From the IMG/VR virus record IMGVR_UViG_2526164613_000023: DNA of 35,309 nucleotides; one strand, 5' to 3'. This document shows, piece by piece, positions 4,896 through 26,846 of the stretch. The position numbers were made by a program, and so were the translations under genes. A model generated the notes under the pieces. That model saw only the letters and a program-made list of their open reading frames with translations. It was not told where the DNA came from and did not search any database. Origin of the DNA: a virus. Taxonomy: Duplodnaviria > Heunggongvirae > Uroviricota > Caudoviricetes. The number at the start of each line of letters is the position of its first letter. Position 1 is the first letter of the stretch.

Positions 4896-7718
4896 ATGAC
4901 GGCAGAGTACATCAGGGACTGGCAACAACCGCGCCACGCAGTGGGGCGTGAAGGAACGGGGATCCCCGCTCCTGAATCCGCGCTTTCCTCCTGGCTGGAT
5001 GCCTACCGGGCAGAGAACGAACGCCGCCAGGAAATGGCTGATGCGGCGTTTTCCGCCACGCCGCTGGGCAACCTGATTAATAAAAGCCTGGACGCACAGG
5101 AAAAACAGGACAAAACCATCACACTGGCAGGAGACGCCAGAAAACAGGCACGTGGCGCGGTGGATGAAGCCATGGCCTCGCTGCGCCTGCTGCCGTCCTA
5201 TCTGCGCGATCCGCTTATTCGCCACCTCTCCTTCCTGCGCAAAAAACAGGAAGCCGATCGTCAGAAAGGAAAAAACGCCAGGCAGGCAGAACGCTATGCG
5301 CGTGGGACCCTGCGCAAAATATTCGAACGTCTGGAGCGCACCGATCACCGCTGGGTGACACCGGGTTATCGCTCCCTTGCCGGACGCGAACGCCTGGACG
5401 ATTTGCTTTACCTGCCGCAGCTCAACAAACACCAGATACAGACGCTGGCCACCATGACGGCGGCGATGTTCAGCAGCACCTTCGAAAAACTCTGCGATGG
5501 CTTTGGCGCGACCGATGGCGAGCTGACCATGGATGTAACCATGAAGGCGCATCAGATGCTGGCCCGCATGGCGTTACACCTGCATGCCATGCCTCCACAT
5601 TATGACGCACTGACAACAGACAAAGACCGGAGGAACGAACCGGACACGGAGCTGCTGCCGGGTGCAATCCTTCGCCTGACCTGTGCGGAATGGTGGAAAC
5701 GCAAACTGTGGCTGTTACGTTGCGAGTGGCGGGAAGAACAACTCCGCGCCGCCTGTCTGGTTTCCAGAAAAACATCACCCTATCTGAGCCAGGACGCGTT
5801 AAGCGAGTTTCGCGCACAGCGCGAGAAAACACGCGATTTCCTGAAAAGTTTCATGCTGGAAAATGAAGACGGGTTCACGATTGATCTCGAGACGGTGTAT
5901 TACGCGGGAGTAAGTAACCCGGTTCACCGTAAAGCAGAAATGATGGCCACCATGAAGGGGCTGGAACTTCTGGCCGAAGCCCGTGGCGACAAAGCGGTGT
6001 TTCTGACTGTCACCTGCCCGTCAAAATACCACGCCACAACGGAGAACGGTCATCCGAATCCCAAATGGAACGGGGCCACAATGCGCGACTCCAGCGATTA
6101 CCTGGTTAACACGTTTTTTGCGGCGGTCCGCAAAAAACTGAACCGCGACGGCCTGCGCTGGTATGGCATCCGCACGGTGGAGCCTCATCATGACGGCACC
6201 GTGCACTGGCATATGATGGTCTTTGCACATCCGGAAGAAATCGACACCATTGTGTCCCATACCCGCGATATTGCGATTCAGGAAGACCGCCACGAGCTGG
6301 GCAATGATATTACTCCGCGCTTTAAGGTGGAGTATGTCGACGGCTCAAAAGGCACGCCAACCAGCTACATCGCCACCTACATCGGAAAGAACCTGGACAG
6401 CCGCGCCGTGGATGGCATCGACCCGAAAACGGGCAAGCCACGCGTGGACCACGAAACCGGAAAATCAATGGCCGAGAGCGTGGAACGCGCCATCGGCTGG
6501 GCGCGTCTTCACCGCATCCGCCAGTTCCAGTTCCTTGGTATCCCCTCCCGTCAGGTATGGCGTGAACTCCGCCGCCTTGCCAGTCAGATGGCCCGCAACC
6601 CGGAAGGTCCACAACGTCTGGAAAATGACGCAATGGATGCGGTACTCGCTGCCGCTGATGCCGGGTGTTTTGCCACCTACATTGAGAAACAGGGTGGCGT
6701 ACTTGTTCCACGCAAAGACTACCTGATTCGCACAGCCTACGACCTCGCAGATGAGCTGAACGATTACGGCGAACAGAGTGTACAGATTTACGGGATCTGG
6801 TCACCACTCATCGGGGAATCCTCCCGTGTGTGCACGCACCCGGATAACTGGAAGCTGGTAAGACGTAAACCGGAACAGGAAGGTAGCGCCCACGAAAATG
6901 GTTTTGACCTTCAGGGCGGCCCTGCCGCCCCTTGGACTCGTGGCAATAACTGTCCCCGTGTACAAGAAACGGACAACAACGGGACAGAACAGCCGGAAGA
7001 ACGGCCAGCACCGTGGCCGCAGCTTCCTGACGGCGTTGACGTGAATGAATGGATGCGCTCACTGAAACGGCACGAACGCCGGGCGCTGATGCGTTCGCTG
7101 CGTGACAAACAGGCAAAAAACAGCAGTGATGAAATGCAGAACTGGACACAGAGCCGCAAACAGCCACAGCCTTTGCCTGATAACCACGAGTTACTCGCTA
7201 AAGAATGGCGGGAGTCTGCTGAATCTCTCGGCCTGCATATTGGTGAACAGCAGATGCAGCACCTGTTACGGGGCGGCAGTCTGTACGTTGACGGCAGCAT
7301 CATTGCACCGCAGGGATTTGAAATTGTACGCAAACCGGATACCCGCCCGGACAGCCGAATCACGCAGCTCTGGCAACGCCTGAGTCGTAATCACGGCGTA
7401 AGCAGCACGGAGATCCGCCATAACCCGGTCGCCAGCTATCTGGAACAACTAGAGGCATCAGACCCTGAAGCCGCCGCACGCCTGGCATCCACACTTCAGC
7501 AAGACCAGAACACCATGAAAACACCCGTTACCGTACTTTCTGACATGCTGCGCGCCATCCGCGACGCAGAGCACGCACAGAGAATCAGTGAAACAACTGA
7601 ACGCGCCCGCCGCAAAGCAGACCTGCTGCGGGGTGGCCTGAGCAGTGGAAACAAAAAACAGACAAAAACGGGATTCACAAATCCCGTAAATGAGCAAAAA
7701 ACGCGCCGCGATATATGA
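4896..7718 (+). CDS. A: Rolling-circle replication initiator / endonuclease, P2 gpA-like
   Basis: 940-aa ORF; segments TVHWHMMVFAHPEE and YIATYIGKNLDSRAVDG match the P2 A motifs as recalled; long C-terminal extension relative to P2 A (761 aa). Confidence 0.85.
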   Translation: MTAEYIRDWQQPRHAVGREGTGIPAPESALSSWLDAYRAENERRQEMADAAFSATPLGNLINKSLDAQEKQDKTITLAGDARKQARGAVDEAMASLRLLPSYLRDPLIRHLSFLRKKQEADRQKGKNARQAERYARGTLRKIFERLERTDHRWVTPGYRSLAGRERLDDLLYLPQLNKHQIQTLATMTAAMFSSTFEKLCDGFGATDGELTMDVTMKAHQMLARMALHLHAMPPHYDALTTDKDRRNEPDTELLPGAILRLTCAEWWKRKLWLLRCEWREEQLRAACLVSRKTSPYLSQDALSEFRAQREKTRDFLKSFMLENEDGFTIDLETVYYAGVSNPVHRKAEMMATMKGLELLAEARGDKAVFLTVTCPSKYHATTENGHPNPKWNGATMRDSSDYLVNTFFAAVRKKLNRDGLRWYGIRTVEPHHDGTVHWHMMVFAHPEEIDTIVSHTRDIAIQEDRHELGNDITPRFKVEYVDGSKGTPTSYIATYIGKNLDSRAVDGIDPKTGKPRVDHETGKSMAESVERAIGWARLHRIRQFQFLGIPSRQVWRELRRLASQMARNPEGPQRLENDAMDAVLAAADAGCFATYIEKQGGVLVPRKDYLIRTAYDLADELNDYGEQSVQIYGIWSPLIGESSRVCTHPDNWKLVRRKPEQEGSAHENGFDLQGGPAAPWTRGNNCPRVQETDNNGTEQPEERPAPWPQLPDGVDVNEWMRSLKRHERRALMRSLRDKQAKNSSDEMQNWTQSRKQPQPLPDNHELLAKEWRESAESLGLHIGEQQMQHLLRGGSLYVDGSIIAPQGFEIVRKPDTRPDSRITQLWQRLSRNHGVSSTEIRHNPVASYLEQLEASDPEAAARLASTLQQDQNTMKTPVTVLSDMLRAIRDAEHAQRISETTERARRKADLLRGGLSSGNKKQTKTGFTNPVNEQKTRRDI

Positions 7719-7794: not shown

Positions 7795-8754
7795 ATGAAA
7801 ATTTGTATCGACGACGGCTCCACCAACATCAAGCTGGCATGGACTGAGAACGGCGAACGCCGCAACGCCATCAGCCCGAACAGCTTCAAGTCGGAATGGT
7901 CTGCACCGTTCGGTGGCACGCAGCCCGCGAACTACATGCTTGATGGCGTGCGCTATGGTTTTGATCCGGTCAGCGATCGCTTTGTCCAGACGACCGACAC
8001 GCAATACCAGTACAGCGATGTGAATGTAATCGCCATTCACCACGCGCTGGTCAAATCAGGCATCACGCCACAGGAGGTGGATGTGGTTGTCACCCTGCCA
8101 CTGAGCGAGTATTTCGACACAAACGCACAGCCGGATATGACCAACATCAACCGCAAAAAAGCGAACGTCATGCGCCCGGTGGAGTACCAGAACGGTGAGG
8201 CATTCACTATCCGTAACGTGCGGGTTATGCCTGAATCCATTCCGGCAGGCTTTAAGGCACTGGCTGACATGAGTCCGTTTGAATCCCTGCTGATTGTTGA
8301 TTTGGGCGGAACCACGCTGGATGTGGCAAAGGTTCAGGGGCAACTGGCAGGCATCAGCCAGGTATTTTGCGATCCACACGTAGGCGTTTCACTGATGACC
8401 GATGCCGTACTGTCGGTGATGGCCACTAACGGTATGCGTACCAGTCACCACATCGCCAATACCATTATCGAACATCGCCATGATGAAGCCTGGCTGCGCC
8501 AGCACATCCACAATGTCGCGCATTACGACAGCCTGATGGCGGTTATTCGTGAAAAGGAAGAAACACTGAAACAACGCGTGATTCGCGCGCTGGCGGGGTT
8601 TTCGGGGTACGGTCGGGTGATGGTTGTCGGTGGAGGGGCGGAGATTGTGGCTCCGGCGGTACATGACGCTTACGGCCTCAACGCAAACATTCACACAACA
8701 CCGGAGCCACAGTTTGCCCTGGTTAATGGACTCCATGATATGGACAGGGAGTGA
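7795..8754 (+). CDS. parM: Actin-like plasmid segregation ATPase, ParM/StbA family
   Basis: 319-aa ORF; N-terminus MKICIDDGSTNIKLAW…ISPNSFKSEW… and later …YQYSDVNVIAIHHALVKSG… closely track R1 ParM as recalled; AAGGA RBS. Confidence 0.85.
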   Translation: MKICIDDGSTNIKLAWTENGERRNAISPNSFKSEWSAPFGGTQPANYMLDGVRYGFDPVSDRFVQTTDTQYQYSDVNVIAIHHALVKSGITPQEVDVVVTLPLSEYFDTNAQPDMTNINRKKANVMRPVEYQNGEAFTIRNVRVMPESIPAGFKALADMSPFESLLIVDLGGTTLDVAKVQGQLAGISQVFCDPHVGVSLMTDAVLSVMATNGMRTSHHIANTIIEHRHDEAWLRQHIHNVAHYDSLMAVIREKEETLKQRVIRALAGFSGYGRVMVVGGGAEIVAPAVHDAYGLNANIHTTPEPQFALVNGLHDMDRE

Positions 8755-21927: not shown

Positions 21928-24087
21928 ATGAGTACCACAACACGAAAATTTAAAACCATTATCACTGATACTGGTGCCAAAAAATTAGCTCAGGCAGCCG
22001 CGCCAGATGGTAATCCTGTCCGCCTGACTCACATGGCCGTGGGCGACGGTGGCGGCACGTTGCCCACACCAGACAGTAAGCAGACCCGTCTGGTGCATGA
22101 GGTGTGGCGACATACTGTTAATCGCGTCATCCTGGACGCAACACATCAGAACCGCATTATTGCGGAGCTGGTTATTCCTCCTGAAACGGGCGGATTCTGG
22201 ATCCGGGAAATTGGTGTATTTGATGAGCACGGCGATTTGATCGCGGTGGGCAATACTGCCGAAAGTTACAAACCAACCGTTGCCGAAGGATCCGGACGTG
22301 CACAAACATTTCGCACCATTCTGACCGTATCCAGCACTGCCACCGTGGCGCTTACCGTGGATAACACCATGGTTATGGCCACAGTGGATTACGTGAATGA
22401 CAAACTGAAAGAACATGAACAGTCACGACGTCACCCGGACGCCTCGCTGACCGCAAAAGGCTTTGTTCAACTCAGTAGCGCCACCAACAGCACGTCTGAA
22501 GCACTGGCCGCAACGCCGAAAGCGGTCAAGGCAGCCTATGACCTTGCTATCGGGAAATATACCGCACAGGACGCCACTACAGCGCGGAAAGGACTTGTCC
22601 AGCTCAGTAGCGCCACCAACAGCGATTCAGAAACGCTGGCGGCAACACCAAAGGCGGTAAAGGCAACATATGACCTTGCTAACGGGAAATATACTGCGCA
22701 GGATGCCACCACAGCGCGGAAAGGCCTTGTCCAGCTCAGTAGCGCCACCAACAGCACGTCTGAAGCACTGGCCGCAACACCGAAAGCGGTAAAGACAGCA
22801 TATGACCTTGCTAACGGGAAATATACCGCTCAGGACGCTACGACAGCACAAAAAGGGATTGTCCAGCTAAGCAGCGCGACTAACAGCACATCTGAAACGC
22901 TTGCCGCGACACCGAAAGCAGTGAAAGCAGCTAATGACAATGCGAATGGTCGGGTACCTTCTGCCCGTAAGGTGAATGGTAAGGCGCTTTCAGCGGATAT
23001 TACACTGACGCCGAAAGATATTGGTACGCTTAACTCAACAACTATGTCATTCAGCGGTGGTGCTGGTTGGTTCAAATTAGCAACGGTAACCATGCCGCAG
23101 GCGAGTTCTGTTGTTTCAATTACGTTGATTGGTGGCGCGGGATTTAACGTGGAGTCACCTCAACAGGCAGGTATATCTGAACTTGTTCTTCGTGCGGGAA
23201 ATGGAAATCCAAAAGGTCTTACTGGTGCGTTATGGCGACGGACATCGGTTGGATTTACTAATTTTGCATGGGTGAATACATCCGGTGATACCTATGATGT
23301 TTATGTTGAAATAGGTAATTACGCCACAGGTGTTAATATTCAATGGGATTATACCAGTAACGCCAGCGTAACGATTCATACTTCACCAGCATATTCTGCT
23401 AATAAGCCGGAAGGATTAACGGACGGTTCTGTTTATTCGCTGTATATTTCGCCTCATGAACTTTATCCGGTTGGCGCACCGATCCCTTGGCCATCAGATA
23501 CCGTTCCGTCTGGTTATGCCCTGATGCAGGGGCAGACTTTTGACAAATCTGCATACCCGAAACTTGCAGCCGCTTATCCGTCAGGCGTGATCCCTGATAT
23601 GCGTGGCTGGACGATTAAGGGCAAGCCCGCCAGTGGTCGTGCCGTATTGTCTCAGGAACAGGACGGCATTAAATCGCACACCCACAGCGCCAGCGTATCC
23701 AGTACGGATTTGGGTACGAAAACCACATCGTCGTTTGATTACGGGACGAAAACAACCTCACTATTTGACTATGGGACCAAAACTACCAGTAACGCCGGGA
23801 GTCACACGCATTCAATACCAACATCAGATGGTGCAAACCAGGGGGGGGAAATTCCACTGACATCTGGGCGTCTGGCAACTCAATATACATCAGCAACAAC
23901 AGGTTCCTCTGGCTCACATTCTCATACTGTAGGTATTGTTTCTCATCAGCACACTGTCGGTATTGGTGCACACACGCACTCGGTTGCGATTGGCTCACAT
24001 GGACACACCATCACCGTTAACGCTGCTGGTAACGCGGAAAACACCGTCAAAAACATCGCATTTAACTATATTGTGAGGCTTGCATGA
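21928..24087 (+). CDS. H: Tail fibre protein, P2 gpH-like, with tandem fibre repeats and a His-rich HxH tip
   Basis: 719 aa; four 44-aa (132-bp) tandem repeats of the KG(F/L/I)VQLSSATNS…TPKAVK…YDLA…[11 protein letters not shown] type; C-terminal SHSHT…SHQHT…AHTHS…SHGHT motifs. Confidence 0.9.
22456..22950 (+). repeat. About four copies of a 132-bp in-frame tandem repeat inside the tail fibre gene
   Basis: Repeat units start at 22456, 22588, 22720 and 22852; the last copy diverges. Confidence 0.85.
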
Positions 24088-24986
24088 TTACGCTCATTCT
24101 TTCTGCACCAGTAACAGAAATGGCTGAAGCATTTAAGCGGGTATTTGCAAACGCAGATAATGTGAATATTGTCGGAAAGCCATTTGAAACAATCAGAGAA
24201 TTTGACTGTATGGTAAGTGCGGCAAATAGTTTCGGCCTGATGGATGGCGGTGTTGATGCCGCCATTACCGCATTCTTCGGTACTCAGTTACAGTCCCGCG
24301 TTCAGAATCATATTCTTCGTGAATATCTAGGCGAGCAGCCTGTAGGATCTGCGTTTGTTATTGAAACGGGGCATAATCATCACCCCTGGCTGGTACATGC
24401 GCCAACAATGCGTGTTCCGCTGACAATTGACGGAACAGACGCTGTATATAACGCAACCTGGGCCGCTCTGCTTGCCATCTTTCAGCACAATAAAAACGCA
24501 ACGACAGACAGGAAAATAAAGACGGTGGTATTCCCTGCGATGGGGGCTGGATGTGGTCAGGTACCGTTTGAAAGTGTTGCCCGCCAGATGAAGCAGGCCT
24601 GGGATAACTTTAATAAAAAAACAGAATCAATTAACTGGGAATACGCACAATCCCGCCAGTCGGCAGTATTTGGCACATATGCATACTGTCCGGGTAATTC
24701 TGTTTGCCGTTATGCGGATGCTAAATATATTGGATGCGGCGATTATCGGACGTATTGCTCACGTTCCGGGCAGGTCTGTATTAACCCTGAACATCAGGCT
24801 GATGATGTACTGATACAACATCAGGCTAATAACCGGTTTCGCCCTGATTCGCATATACACCGGATTAATCCAGAAAATCCCGTAGGTAATGTCACCTCTG
24901 GCGCACATAGCCACAGAAGTAGCATCGTTATTGGTGCTCACACCCATACGCTCAATAAACAATATTCTGTCTCTGATATTAAGTAG
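24084..24986 (+). CDS. Macro-domain protein (ADP-ribose binding/hydrolase fold) with a tail-fibre-like HxH C-terminus
   Basis: 300 aa; start overlaps the H stop (ATGA) with a GAGG RBS; …[21 protein letters not shown]… and …[24 protein letters not shown]… align with the macro-domain core of E. coli YmdB and Af1521 as recalled; C-terminus …[18 protein letters not shown]… resembles the H tip at protein and nucleotide level. Confidence 0.75.
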
Positions 24987-24994
24987 AGGTGAAC

Positions 24995-25573
24995 ATGGAT
25001 TTCAGAATGAGTGAACAACCACGGACCATAAAAATTTATAATCTGCTGGCCGGAACTAATGAATTTATTGGTGAAGGTGACGCATACATTCCGCCTCATA
25101 CAGGTCTGCCAGCAAACAGTACCGATATTGCACCGCCAGATATTCCGGCTGGCTTCGTGGCTGTTTTCAACAGTAATGAGGCATCGTGGCATCTCGTTGA
25201 AGATCATCGGGGTAAAACGGTTTATGACGTGGCTTCCGGCGACGCGTTATTTATTTCTGAACTCGGTCCGTTACCGGAAAATGTTACCTGGTTGTCGCCG
25301 GATGGAGAGTGTCAGAAGTGGAACGGCACATCCTGGGCGAAAGATGCAGAAGCAGAAAAACTGTTTCGGGTACGGGAGGCAGAAGAAACAAAAAACAGCC
25401 TGATGCAGGTAGCCAGTGAGCATATTGCGCCACTTCAGGATGCCGTAGATTTGGATATTGCGACGGAGGAAGAGGCATCGTTACTGGCTGCATGGAAGAC
25501 ATATCGGGTATTGTTGAATCGTGTTGATACAACAGTAGCAGCGGATGTTGAGTGGCCAGTCGCCCCACAATAA
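24995..25573 (+). CDS. G: Tail fibre assembly chaperone, P2 gpG-like
   Basis: C-terminal …[21 protein letters not shown]…EWPVAPQ matches P2 G …EERARLESWERYSVLVSRVD…EWPEMPQ as recalled. Confidence 0.85.
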
Positions 25574-25579
25574 AAAGAA

Positions 25580-25609
25580 AAAGCCATCGACAGAAATATC
25601 GATGGCTTT
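25580..25609. terminator. Bidirectional Rho-independent terminator between G and the acetyltransferase gene
   Basis: Perfect 11-bp stem AAAGCCATCGA-cagaaata-TCGATGGCTTT; T-rich tract on the minus-strand side and a moderately T-rich tract on the plus side. Confidence 0.65.
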
Positions 25610-25616
25610 ATGTACT

Positions 25617-26222
25617 CTATTTATACAATACAACACCACTCTTTTTAGTTATATATGTGCAGTTTGATGGTATATCTTTATTTATAAAAGACATTGCACC
25701 TATTTTTACATTATCCCCAATTTTACGTGATAATCCAATGATGCAACAATTAGCTCCGATATCAACGTTACTACCAATTTTTACTCTTGAACTAGGCATA
25801 TCACCATCTATCTGTCCAATGGTAGTATTCTGTCGTAATACCAGATTTTCACCCGCATCAACAGCAAAATGAACAACAATTCCAGCATGATGGGGAATTG
25901 TCAACCCTTTTCCAATATTTGCGCCCAATCCTATTTCACAACCAAACTTGTTAATTATTTTACTGTTTAACTTTTTGGCTGCTTTCTTATGTAATTTATT
26001 ACCATTAATATACATTTCGTTAGCCAACCGCCACCAGAAAAGGAAATTCCGGTTACGCTGCTTTTTCTCTCTTAAAAGCCTCCAGATATCCATACGTTTC
26101 CGCCGAATTACTTCATGTTTCCAGAAGTTTTTTAAATTAGTAGAGTTTCCAAATAAAACAAAGTGAATTGCCATTAAGTAAGATAGCACGATAATCTCCT
26201 TAATTATTATTTCAGACCACAC
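25617..26222 (-). CDS. Hexapeptide-repeat (left-handed beta-helix) acetyltransferase, serine-acetyltransferase-like; cargo at the Z/fun position
   Basis: 201-aa ORF in a strongly AT-rich island; …GCEIGLGANIGKGLTIPHHAGIVV…IGSNVDIGANCCIIG…IGDNVKIGAMSFI… shows hexapeptide periodicity typical of CysE-like acetyltransferases; start codon uncertain (internal Met candidates). Confidence 0.65.
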   Translation of the reverse strand: MWSEIIIKEIIVLSYLMAIHFVLFGNSTNLKNFWKHEVIRRKRMDIWRLLREKKQRNRNFLFWWRLANEMYINGNKLHKKAAKKLNSKIINKFGCEIGLGANIGKGLTIPHHAGIVVHFAVDAGENLVLRQNTTIGQIDGDMPSSRVKIGSNVDIGANCCIIGLSRKIGDNVKIGAMSFINKDIPSNCTYITKKSGVVLYK

Positions 26223-26345
26223 ATGTTATAAGGTTAAGAGATTATAAAATCCTGTTATTTGTTATTCAAAAACAATTTTCTGAGAAGGACATACAACAGC
26301 AAGTCGCCAGTCACCTTCATCAGGAAATTGGCGACATACGTTAAA

Positions 26346-26840
26346 TCAGAGCAGCCCCTTAACTGAGCTGGCCGCGCTATTAAGGGATGATGTCACCTTA
26401 TCTTTGAAGCCGGACAGCATATCGCTGAACGATGAGGATTGCAGGCGCTCCCGCAAATCCTCATCACAGCGTTCAAGAGTCAGTGAAAATTCTATCTTTT
26501 TCGCCTTACCGTAGCGATCAAACTCGGAGCGGGTCGTATTCGTTCCGGTCAGGACATACATGCCGTAAATCTGCCCGACGCCATCAATCAAAGGCCAAGG
26601 ACGTCCTGTATATGCCTGCGTGGTCAACAACGACAGCGACACTTCGCCACCAGTAATCTCAGGATAAAGAACACCAGAAAGAACGATGCGATCATCACCT
26701 GCACCGATATACTGCCAGCTTGCTGAACGGTTAACGCGTTCATTTTTCACATGTCGCCAGCTTTTGTTTTGCTGTAGCTGCTGATGCGGCAACGTGCGCA
26801 GCTCAAAAACAAACATGCCGTAGATCATCATCATGGCCAT
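26346..26840 (-). CDS. U: Tail protein, P2 gpU-like
   Basis: 164 aa (P2 U about 159 aa), immediately downstream of the tape-measure gene on the minus strand. Confidence 0.75.
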   Translation of the reverse strand: MAMMMIYGMFVFELRTLPHQQLQQNKSWRHVKNERVNRSASWQYIGAGDDRIVLSGVLYPEITGGEVSLSLLTTQAYTGRPWPLIDGVGQIYGMYVLTGTNTTRSEFDRYGKAKKIEFSLTLERCDEDLRERLQSSSFSDMLSGFKDKVTSSLNSAASSVKGLL

Positions 26841-26846
26841 GACTCC

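Follow-up and report, generated by a model that had tools for sequence, protein, structure and literature searches.

A macro-domain gene in the tail fibre cassette of a P2-like prophage: an optional passenger with a fibre-like tail and a possible role in counter-defence

Introduction

What could a macro-domain protein do between a tail fibre and the chaperone of that fibre? The question is raised by a stretch of 35,309 nucleotides (nt) of viral DNA (Caudoviricetes; IMG/VR record IMGVR_UViG_2526164613_000023; hereafter the window), which is a complete P2-like (Peduoviridae) prophage with genes for an integrase, the GPA replication protein, ParM, the portal, the terminase, V, W, J, I, H, G, FI, FII, T, U and D. 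Between the genes for fibre H and its assembly chaperone G (Tfa) lies an open reading frame (ORF) for a macro-domain protein, hereafter the macro gene and the macro protein. An earlier note, made from the sequence alone, had described the ORF as coupled to the stop of H and placed in the late fibre operon, and had proposed either a fibre-associated enzyme or an anti-defence protein against DarT-like ADP-ribosylation.

Erasing and reading ADP-ribose signals falls mainly to macro domains, and to our knowledge AdfM, which belongs to a different clade from the protein described here, is the only phage macro domain with a demonstrated role in counter-defence. The reading favoured here, with a probability of about 45%, is that the macro protein is an accessory hydrolase of ADP-ribose derivatives with a fibre-mimicking tail, carried as an optional passenger of an exchangeable fibre-end/chaperone cassette, counter-defence being its probable purpose.

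Macro Domain and Active Site

The claim of a macro-domain core holds. Pfam PF01661 matches residues 44–169 over the whole profile (positions 1–118 of 118) with 68.1 bits against a cut-off of 22 (E=8e-19), and in an AlphaFold2 (AF2) monomer model built on a 66-sequence alignment, residues 1–195 adopt the three-layer α/β/α macro fold with a predicted local distance difference test (pLDDT) score >90 throughout. The nearest solved structure is that of yeast Ymx7 (YMR087W, PDB 1NJR; ~20% identity), to which the protein is closest over the full domain including the N-terminal extension, as expected of the Macro2-type clade. By fold and sequence, the domain groups with Ymx7 and not with MacroD/YmdB, DarG/AdfM or PARG.

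The catalytic residues, which the earlier note had singled out for checking, are intact. The catalytic loop, N48-SFGLMD-G55-G56-V57-D58, fits the N-x6-GG[VLI]-D pattern of MacroD-type hydrolase active sites, and the diphosphate loop, P151-AM-G154-A-G156-C-G158, follows the GxGxG pattern. The motifs of both loops are invariant within the macro family (alignments of 13 and 48 sequences), and in 66 sequences sampled from the wider subfamily, conservation of N48, D58 and G158 is at least 90%. This conservation suggests an enzyme rather than a degenerate binder.

The core subfamily consists of standalone proteins of ~200 amino acids (aa) from bacteria and eukaryotes (1306 cluster representatives at E ≤1e-10), and some of its members also carry WD40, DSP-phosphatase or RRM domains as fusions. 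Of the standalone homologues, the closest (64% identity, 207 aa) has no extension and is encoded in an unrelated phage, upstream of the terminase and next to ParB_N and methyltransferase accessory genes; since it sits in no tail module, the macro core can work away from a fibre. Within the Macro2 clade, only Ymx7 has been studied; it converts ADP-ribose-1''-phosphate to ADP-ribose, while reportedly having no activity in removing mono-ADP-ribosylation (PMC6397177).

The DarT-like target that had been suggested is unlikely, since the domain is of the Ymx7/Macro2 type, Ymx7 is reported not to reverse mono-ADP-ribosylation, and the DarG models fail (NCBIfam DarG, 12.6 bits against a cut-off of 250; PADLOC DarG, 14.5 bits). 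Beside the macro gene, whose neighbours are the fibre and Tfa, there is neither a DarT toxin nor a DarT-binding domain, and the scanned ORFs of the window include no ADP-ribosyltransferase.

Records of jumbo phages such as Noxifer, phiRSL1, FBKp24, RTH11 and PA1C also contain distant relatives of the macro core as standalone proteins (31–39% identity), where they are labelled 'tail protein' or 'tail assembly-like protein' (PHROG 14717). These labels look like annotation transfer from the enterobacterial fibre-cassette family and not like evidence of a role in the tail.

Junctions and Operon Context

The 300-aa ORF exists as it had been described, and its start is tied to the fibre gene: the macro ATG (24084–24086) overlaps the TGA stop of H (24085–24087) as ATGA, and a GAGG motif (24075–24078) lies five bases 5' of the ATG (Table 1). 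The macro frame is the H frame −1 at this overlap. A programmed −1 frameshift fusing H to the macro ORF was rejected, as the junction (…GGCTTGCATGA…) has no slippery heptamer, and termination-reinitiation is therefore the simpler reading. On the other side, the ATG of the chaperone gene (24995), whose start was taken from RefSeq by correspondence with the prophage of E. coli O157:H7 PV15-279 (locus L001), lies 8 nt past the macro stop.

No promoter-like or terminator-like sites above chance flank the macro gene. Its guanine-cytosine (GC) content of 0.45–0.49 is like that of the fibre tip and tfa, the phage core having 0.54–0.60. An independent moron was likewise rejected as a reading of the macro gene, which has no promoter or terminator of its own and matches its neighbours in GC content. 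The junctions and the missing signals bear out the placement of the gene within the late fibre operon.

Table 1. Positions of the macro gene, its parts and its neighbours in the window
Feature	Position	Strand	Remarks
Tail fibre H, 719 aa	21928..24087	+	Pfam PF12571, PF03406 x4, PF07484
Fibre H residues 663–696, terminal HxH repeats	23914..24015	+	Region resembled by the macro tail
Upstream junction: GAGG Shine-Dalgarno and ATGA stop/start overlap of fibre H and macro gene	24075..24087	+	From sequence
Macro-domain protein gene, PHROG 2613	24084..24986	+	300 aa plus stop; ORF list and sequence
Ymx7/Macro2-type macro domain with N-terminal beta-alpha extension, residues 1–195	24084..24668	+	
Family-specific Cys-rich segment (C202, C208, C225, C232, H237), residues 196–241	24669..24806	+	Candidate metal-binding knuckle
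HxH-repeat tail (SHIH, AHSH, AHTH), residues 256–290	24849..24953	+	Diverged copy, judging by sequence, of the fibre terminal HxH repeats
Tail fibre assembly protein G/Tfa, ATG 24995, with GAGGTG Shine-Dalgarno 24986–24991	24986..25573	+	Pfam Caudo_TAP E=7e-40; immediately 3' of the macro gene in 83 of 87 loci
Terminator-like hairpin closing the H-macro-G operon	25580..25609	listed on minus strand	Between convergent genes

Distribution and Optional Status

The earlier note presented a macro domain at this position in P2-like phages as new, which proved wrong. The protein belongs to PHROG 2613, a family of unknown function (E=7e-149; residues 1–271 on profile positions 1–272 of 274), and among 5426 complete E. 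coli genomes, 128 carry the gene, at 131 places in all (22 of them on plasmids). It is present as well in the P2-like phages Chuche and SEN4/SEN5 and in Gifsy-1 of S. Typhimurium LT2 (STM2588.1n, 'contains pfam01661'). It occurs, moreover, in lambdoid stf-tfa modules and in a linear N15-like phage-plasmid, and the only part that the P2-like, lambdoid and N15-like carriers have in common is the distal fibre cassette. In RefSeq E. coli genomes, copies with 100% identity bear the annotation 'macro domain-containing protein', and a protein search returned 1712 clusters in Escherichia, Salmonella, Citrobacter and Erwinia, often under the name 'phage tail protein'. The gene is a common, conserved member of the fibre module, which is the first half of what the earlier note had said would undo its proposal.

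The position within the cassette is fixed. In 86 of 87 loci, the upstream fibre ends in ...NYIVRLA and its stop overlaps the macro ATG by 4 nt, and the distance to tfa is −28 to +24 nt, five loci excepted: one has its first called downstream ORF at +72, and four have no called downstream ORF. The upstream fibres themselves vary in length from 411 to 1177 aa, and their tips form 6 clusters.

Most cassettes do without the macro gene. The conserved 154-nt 3' end of the fibre gene is present at 6638 places in 3893 E. coli genomes, with ~2% of these ends carrying the macro gene, and among 120 exact junctions in a sample of IMG/VR, 108 continue directly with tfa and 12 with the macro gene. As nothing besides tfa or the macro gene follows these 120 junctions, a general insertion hotspot between fibre and tfa was rejected. 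The earlier statement that canonical cassettes have nothing between H and G is supported by a macro-less E. coli cassette with flanks identical to the base (...GGCTTGCATAATGGCATTCAGAATG... / ...GGCTTGCATAATGGCATTCAGAATGAGTGAAC...); the natural macro-less junction reads ...GCATAATGG..., with TAATG, and in macro-less cassettes the same GAGG serves tfa. Because these flanks are identical, the macro gene can be described as a clean insertion of ~0.9 kb that has captured the ribosome-binding site of tfa and brings a replacement for it. The gene is an optional passenger and not an assembly requirement, the latter being excluded in practice because identical fibre ends and Tfa work without it in 90–98% of cassettes.

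The macro gene of E. coli O157:H7 PV15-279, which is 100% identical to that of the window, sits in a near-identical but defective prophage, the tape-measure gene of which is cut by the insertion sequences IS1203 and IS30 (22764–27065 of that locus).

Cysteine-Rich Segment and HxH Tail

C-terminal to the macro domain, the protein carries two parts that its standalone homologues lack or that recall the neighbouring fibre. The first is the Cys-rich segment, in which, across 48 sequences, C202, C225 and C232 never vary and C208 is conserved in at least 90%; H237 is invariant in the smaller 13-sequence alignment. AF2 models it as beta-hairpins with moderate confidence (pLDDT 59–73). Standalone macro homologues have no such segment, and a tblastn search against phage records found it only in members of the macro family and as an orphan remnant in Salmonella phage SEN34 (L006, 5001–5183; 59% identity to residues 184–244). 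This remnant lies outside fibre cassettes, downstream of a macro-less fibre-tfa pair and adjoining an O-acetyltransferase gene, and is apparently the relic of a lost macro copy.

The second part is the tail. Fibre H has a P2-type N-terminus, four fibre repeats, a collar domain, an HxH shaft and tip, and the end ...NYIVRLA, and it is the window ORF that matches the macro tail best. The two HxH regions align in register with three HxH motifs matched and a score of 64, against 32 ± 5 for 1000 composition-preserving shuffles, 0/1000 of which reach 64. In-register likeness to the terminal HxH region of the adjacent fibre is also seen in the 289-aa class of E. coli, in the 274-aa and 269-aa classes of Salmonella and in the divergent loci L052 and L087, the tail of L087 having four HxH motifs. 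E. coli tails score higher against fibres of their own class, a modest co-variation. When gap penalties are relaxed, the alignment extends into the NAENTVKN region of the fibre, where the SEN5 tail has a matched N.E..VKN trace (4/1000 shuffles reach the score) and the window copy a few scattered identities. Judged by these alignments, the tail is a diverged copy of the C-terminal segment of the fibre.

The resemblance to the fibre tip that the earlier note had seen at both levels is clear at that of the protein and marginal at that of nucleotides, where it reaches 19/22 nt at best (E=0.076 within the window). A nucleotide copy of the fibre tip through recent recombination or gene conversion is not supported by such a match, which argues that the copying event was old; of the recombination with the fibre gene that had been proposed, an old event is consistent with the tail homology and a recent one is not borne out.

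Residues 242–300 are disordered in both AF2 monomer models, the second of which, built on a family-only alignment, was worse overall (mean pLDDT 56.6). The C-terminal 117 aa searched alone retrieved only four fragments, all of the same macro family, and the macro ORF has no match to Pfam models of fibre attachment, collar or tip, nor to Caudo_TAP (PF02413).

Selection differs between the parts of the protein. The ratio of nonsynonymous to synonymous substitution rates (dN/dS) in the core, Cys segment and tail is 0.09, 0.15 and 0.87 in the E. coli 300-aa class, 0.14, 0.35 and 0.40 in the Salmonella 274-aa class, and 0.21, 0.10 and 0.30 in the 289-aa class. The core is under strong purifying selection (0.09–0.21). 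Its similarity between loci correlates with that of the N-terminal part of Tfa (0.90), the fibre end (0.78), the tip (0.70) and the C-terminal part of Tfa (0.53). These correlations are explained by map distance alone, and co-adaptation with fibre or Tfa was rejected as a reading of them.

Such data could be taken to mean that the tail is a scar of illegitimate recombination inside the HxH region of the fibre, its leftover codons drifting behind a free cytoplasmic enzyme that hitch-hikes at this site on conserved flanks. The dN/dS of 0.87 in the E. coli class would fit, as would the loss of later HxH motifs in many alleles (IGTPTH, IGAPTH, GAYNH), the truncated alleles of 242–255 aa (those of 255 aa, in protein clusters P0023 and P0019, retain little of the HxH tail), the flanks that are identical with and without the gene, and a linkage that simply falls with distance along the DNA. 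The first HxH (H257, H259) is nevertheless at least 90% conserved, the most divergent members retain two to four in-register motifs, the tail has a dN/dS of 0.30–0.40 in the two other classes, and the adjoining Cys4 segment, which standalone relatives lack as well, is strongly constrained, so that we consider a mere scar unlikely. Decay of the gene or its tail is tolerated in some prophages. At locus L086 (IMG/VR 3300029190_000077, 510–1411), the macro ORF is split into pieces of 169 and 132 aa.

Proposed Role

An accessory hydrolase with a probable role in counter-defence would work as follows. Made late in infection or upon induction, at the pace of the fibre through translational termination-reinitiation, the macro protein would hydrolyse or sequester 1''-substituted ADP-ribose compounds in the cytoplasm. 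Candidate substrates are molecules like ADP-ribose-1''-phosphate and ADP-ribose (ADPR) signals of the Toll/interleukin-1 receptor (TIR)/Thoeris type, with macromolecular ADP-ribosyl adducts being less likely. Host immunity based on NAD or ADP-ribose could in this manner be blunted while the structural proteins that trigger it are made. The Cys4 segment and the HxH tail together may provide metal-dependent trimerisation or docking onto the nascent fibre-Tfa complex, and the gene would spread with host-range modules by homologous recombination, via flanks that are among the most conserved sequences of these prophages.

The counter-defence reading draws on three published points. According to a survey of phage macro proteins, those encoded in morphogenesis clusters are predicted to target soluble ADP-ribose signals (PMC9503650); AdfM provides the precedent of a phage macro domain with a proven counter-defence function (PMC13309987); and in Pseudomonas phages, the folded side tail fibre together with its chaperone sets the sensitivity to Thoeris II, which signals through histidine-ADPR (His-ADPR) (bioRxiv 10.64898/2026.06.04.730250).

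Several points weigh against this proposal. The Thoeris-fibre link comes from unrelated Pseudomonas podoviruses and may serve as an analogy only. A gene of the late operon cannot protect the incoming genome early, unless its protein is packaged. Nearby, the window ORFs scanned include no ADP-ribosyltransferase or TIR gene that would hint at a target, and in the literature searched, no functional study of the macro family, biochemical or genetic, was found. Confident AF2 structure is absent for residues 238–300, and the tail may be partly a fossil because it evolves fast in the E. coli 300-aa class, often loses the third HxH and is cut short in some alleles.

A bolder version, which we regard as distinctly improbable, makes the protein a trigger-linked antidote. 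Made one-for-one with the fibre, a fibre-mimicking macro hydrolase zippered by metal through Cys4 and HxH would dock on the nascent fibre-chaperone complex and destroy the ADP-ribose alarm signals (Thoeris-type His-ADPR or glycocyclic ADPR, gcADPR) or the ADP-ribosyl marks that host sensors raise when they recognise this complex, and cassette and evasion factor would pass together, as one unit of recombination, among myoviruses, siphoviruses and phage-plasmids.

Alternative Explanations

Instead of acting in the cytoplasm, the protein could decorate the fibre of the virion outside the cell, where it would trimerise via HxH or bind the fibre-Tfa tip, its macro pocket binding or modifying a surface ligand as an auxiliary receptor-binding or receptor-modifying head. 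The gene lies between fibre and chaperone with a stop/start overlap in all contexts, the distal fibre cassette is the sole part shared by its three kinds of carrier, the tail is homologous to metal-bridged repeats of the fibre shaft, and many database entries read 'phage tail protein', which is annotation and not evidence. The known ligands of macro domains are, however, intracellular ADP-ribose derivatives, and the residues typical of a hydrolase are conserved in the catalytic loop. The same fibre ends and Tfa function without the macro gene in 90–98% of cassettes, at least 6 tip types accompany it, so that it is not tied to one receptor, and there is no recognisable attachment domain in a protein whose closest standalone homologue lies outside a tail module. 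A place on the virion is hence doubtful.

Metabolic housekeeping after the manner of Ymx7 is a much less probable role. The protein would clear ADP-ribose-1''-phosphate or related by-products of RNA 2'-phosphotransferase (KptA/Tpt1) or of NAD turnover as the phage grows, with no part in immunity, and its closest characterised relative is indeed an ADP-ribose-1''-phosphatase; yet RNA-repair genes were not found in the phage, neither the fibre-derived extension nor the fixed cassette position would have a rationale, and the sporadic occurrence is typical of conflict genes.

Least credible of all is a helper of fibre maturation, in which the His/Cys-rich extension would act as a metallochaperone or co-chaperone of certain fibres, delivering metal to their HxH shaft or templating it, with the macro domain being regulatory: the gene adjoins Tfa, the tail mimics the shaft repeats and co-varies modestly with fibres of its own class, but most prophages by far assemble fibres of identical terminal 150 nt and identical Tfa N-terminus without the gene, and the strong constraint on a catalytically intact macro domain would be left unexplained.

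Comparison with Known Systems

In its way of working, the macro protein is most like a standalone viral macro-domain enzyme and not like a fibre, a Tfa or a moron. Its sequence family is already catalogued and widespread. What is new, in that it is not in the literature searched, is the extension of Cys4 and fibre-type HxH together with the fixed fibre/chaperone slot across three virion architectures.

Ymx7 is a cellular, eukaryotic protein of ~20% identity without the Cys4/HxH extension, and its activity is putative for the phage protein. AdfM (PhiKZ gp104/PhiPA3 gp108), the anti-DarT2 protein of chimalliviruses, is likewise a standalone phage macro protein, and its use against ADP-ribose-based immunity is proposed here for the protein of the window. 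AdfM is DarG2-like (ALC1/TARG1-type, with a catalytic Lys), is imported into the phage nucleus and strips ADP-ribose from DNA (PMC13309987), whereas the macro protein, a member of another clade, comes from a late fibre operon and has a fibre-like tail. The survey by Iyer et al. 2022 covers macro, NADAR and Nudix proteins that phages encode in clusters for virion morphogenesis, and the macro protein fits its general class of standalone macro proteins encoded with late or structural genes. The main text of that study predicts packaging into the head and has no mention that we found of tail fibres or Gifsy; macro domains are described there as rare in siphoviruses, while the present family is also found in lambdoid prophages (PMC9503650).

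The HxH shafts of T4 gp37-type fibres, P2 H and lambda Stf share their GxHxH period with the macro tail in all classes of the family. The tail has only one to four repeats and no collar, tip or N-terminal attachment, metal binding and trimerisation are putative, and the conserved fibre end is at most a trace, present in some classes only. Chaperones such as Tfa, P2 G, Mu U and T-even gp38 are likewise encoded directly 3' of the fibre gene and translationally coupled to it; in contrast to these, the macro protein has no sequence or predicted structural similarity to Caudo_TAP, is followed by a normal Tfa and is dispensable for most cassettes.

The family unites the least-studied macro clade, a fibre-derived and putatively metal-binding tail, and a fixed slot in the most frequently exchanged module of enterobacterial prophages. 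It sits in well-known model elements (Gifsy-1 of LT2; P2-like prophages of O157:H7 and O55:H7). If the protein counters NAD- or ADPR-based immunity, host-range cassettes carry their own immune-evasion gene, which would bear on the design of phage therapy and on tailocins or phages with swapped fibres; a place on the virion would instead make it the first macro domain to serve as a structural accessory of a tail fibre.

Other Features of the Prophage

Fibre H contains four near-identical tandem repeats of ~45 aa (PF03406; window 22450–22990, H residues ~175–345), which are a likely substrate for variation in the length of the fibre shaft. In the position of P2 Z/fun, between G and the tail genes, lies a gene for a hexapeptide-repeat acetyltransferase (25617–26222, minus strand; GC content 0.33–0.37; PHROG 2154). 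Its product resembles EpsC, CysE and WcaB (NCBIfam E=3e-21 to 1e-14, with no score reaching its curated cut-off) and is possibly a surface-polysaccharide O-acetyltransferase. A promoter-like site of its own (26269–26241) and the terminator hairpin at 25580–25609 make the gene look like a lysogenic-conversion moron.

The block of FI (sheath), FII (tube), E, T (tape measure) and U (26346–31921, minus strand) lies on the strand opposite to H-G and is therefore inverted relative to the canonical P2 order; D follows at 31947–33179 (plus strand). The Salmonella phages SEN4/SEN5 (Senquatrovirus; L008) have the same inverted layout.

A full-length plasmid-type ParM segregation ATPase is encoded at 7795–8754 (plus strand; Pfam StbA_N, E=3e-82, and the ParM C-terminal domain), and in the prophage of E. 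coli O157:H7 PV15-279 a partition/stability protein is annotated beside the corresponding gene. Between the ParM partition genes and the portal, the window has genes for a DUF3800 protein, which matches the PADLOC candidate defence family PDC-M04A (E=2.5e-35), and for a small unannotated ORF (9302–10108 and 10184–10573; minus strand). The same slot in the PV15-279 prophage holds a hypothetical protein and a DUF4760 protein, and because the genes differ between the two prophages, it is a variable accessory or defence hotspot.

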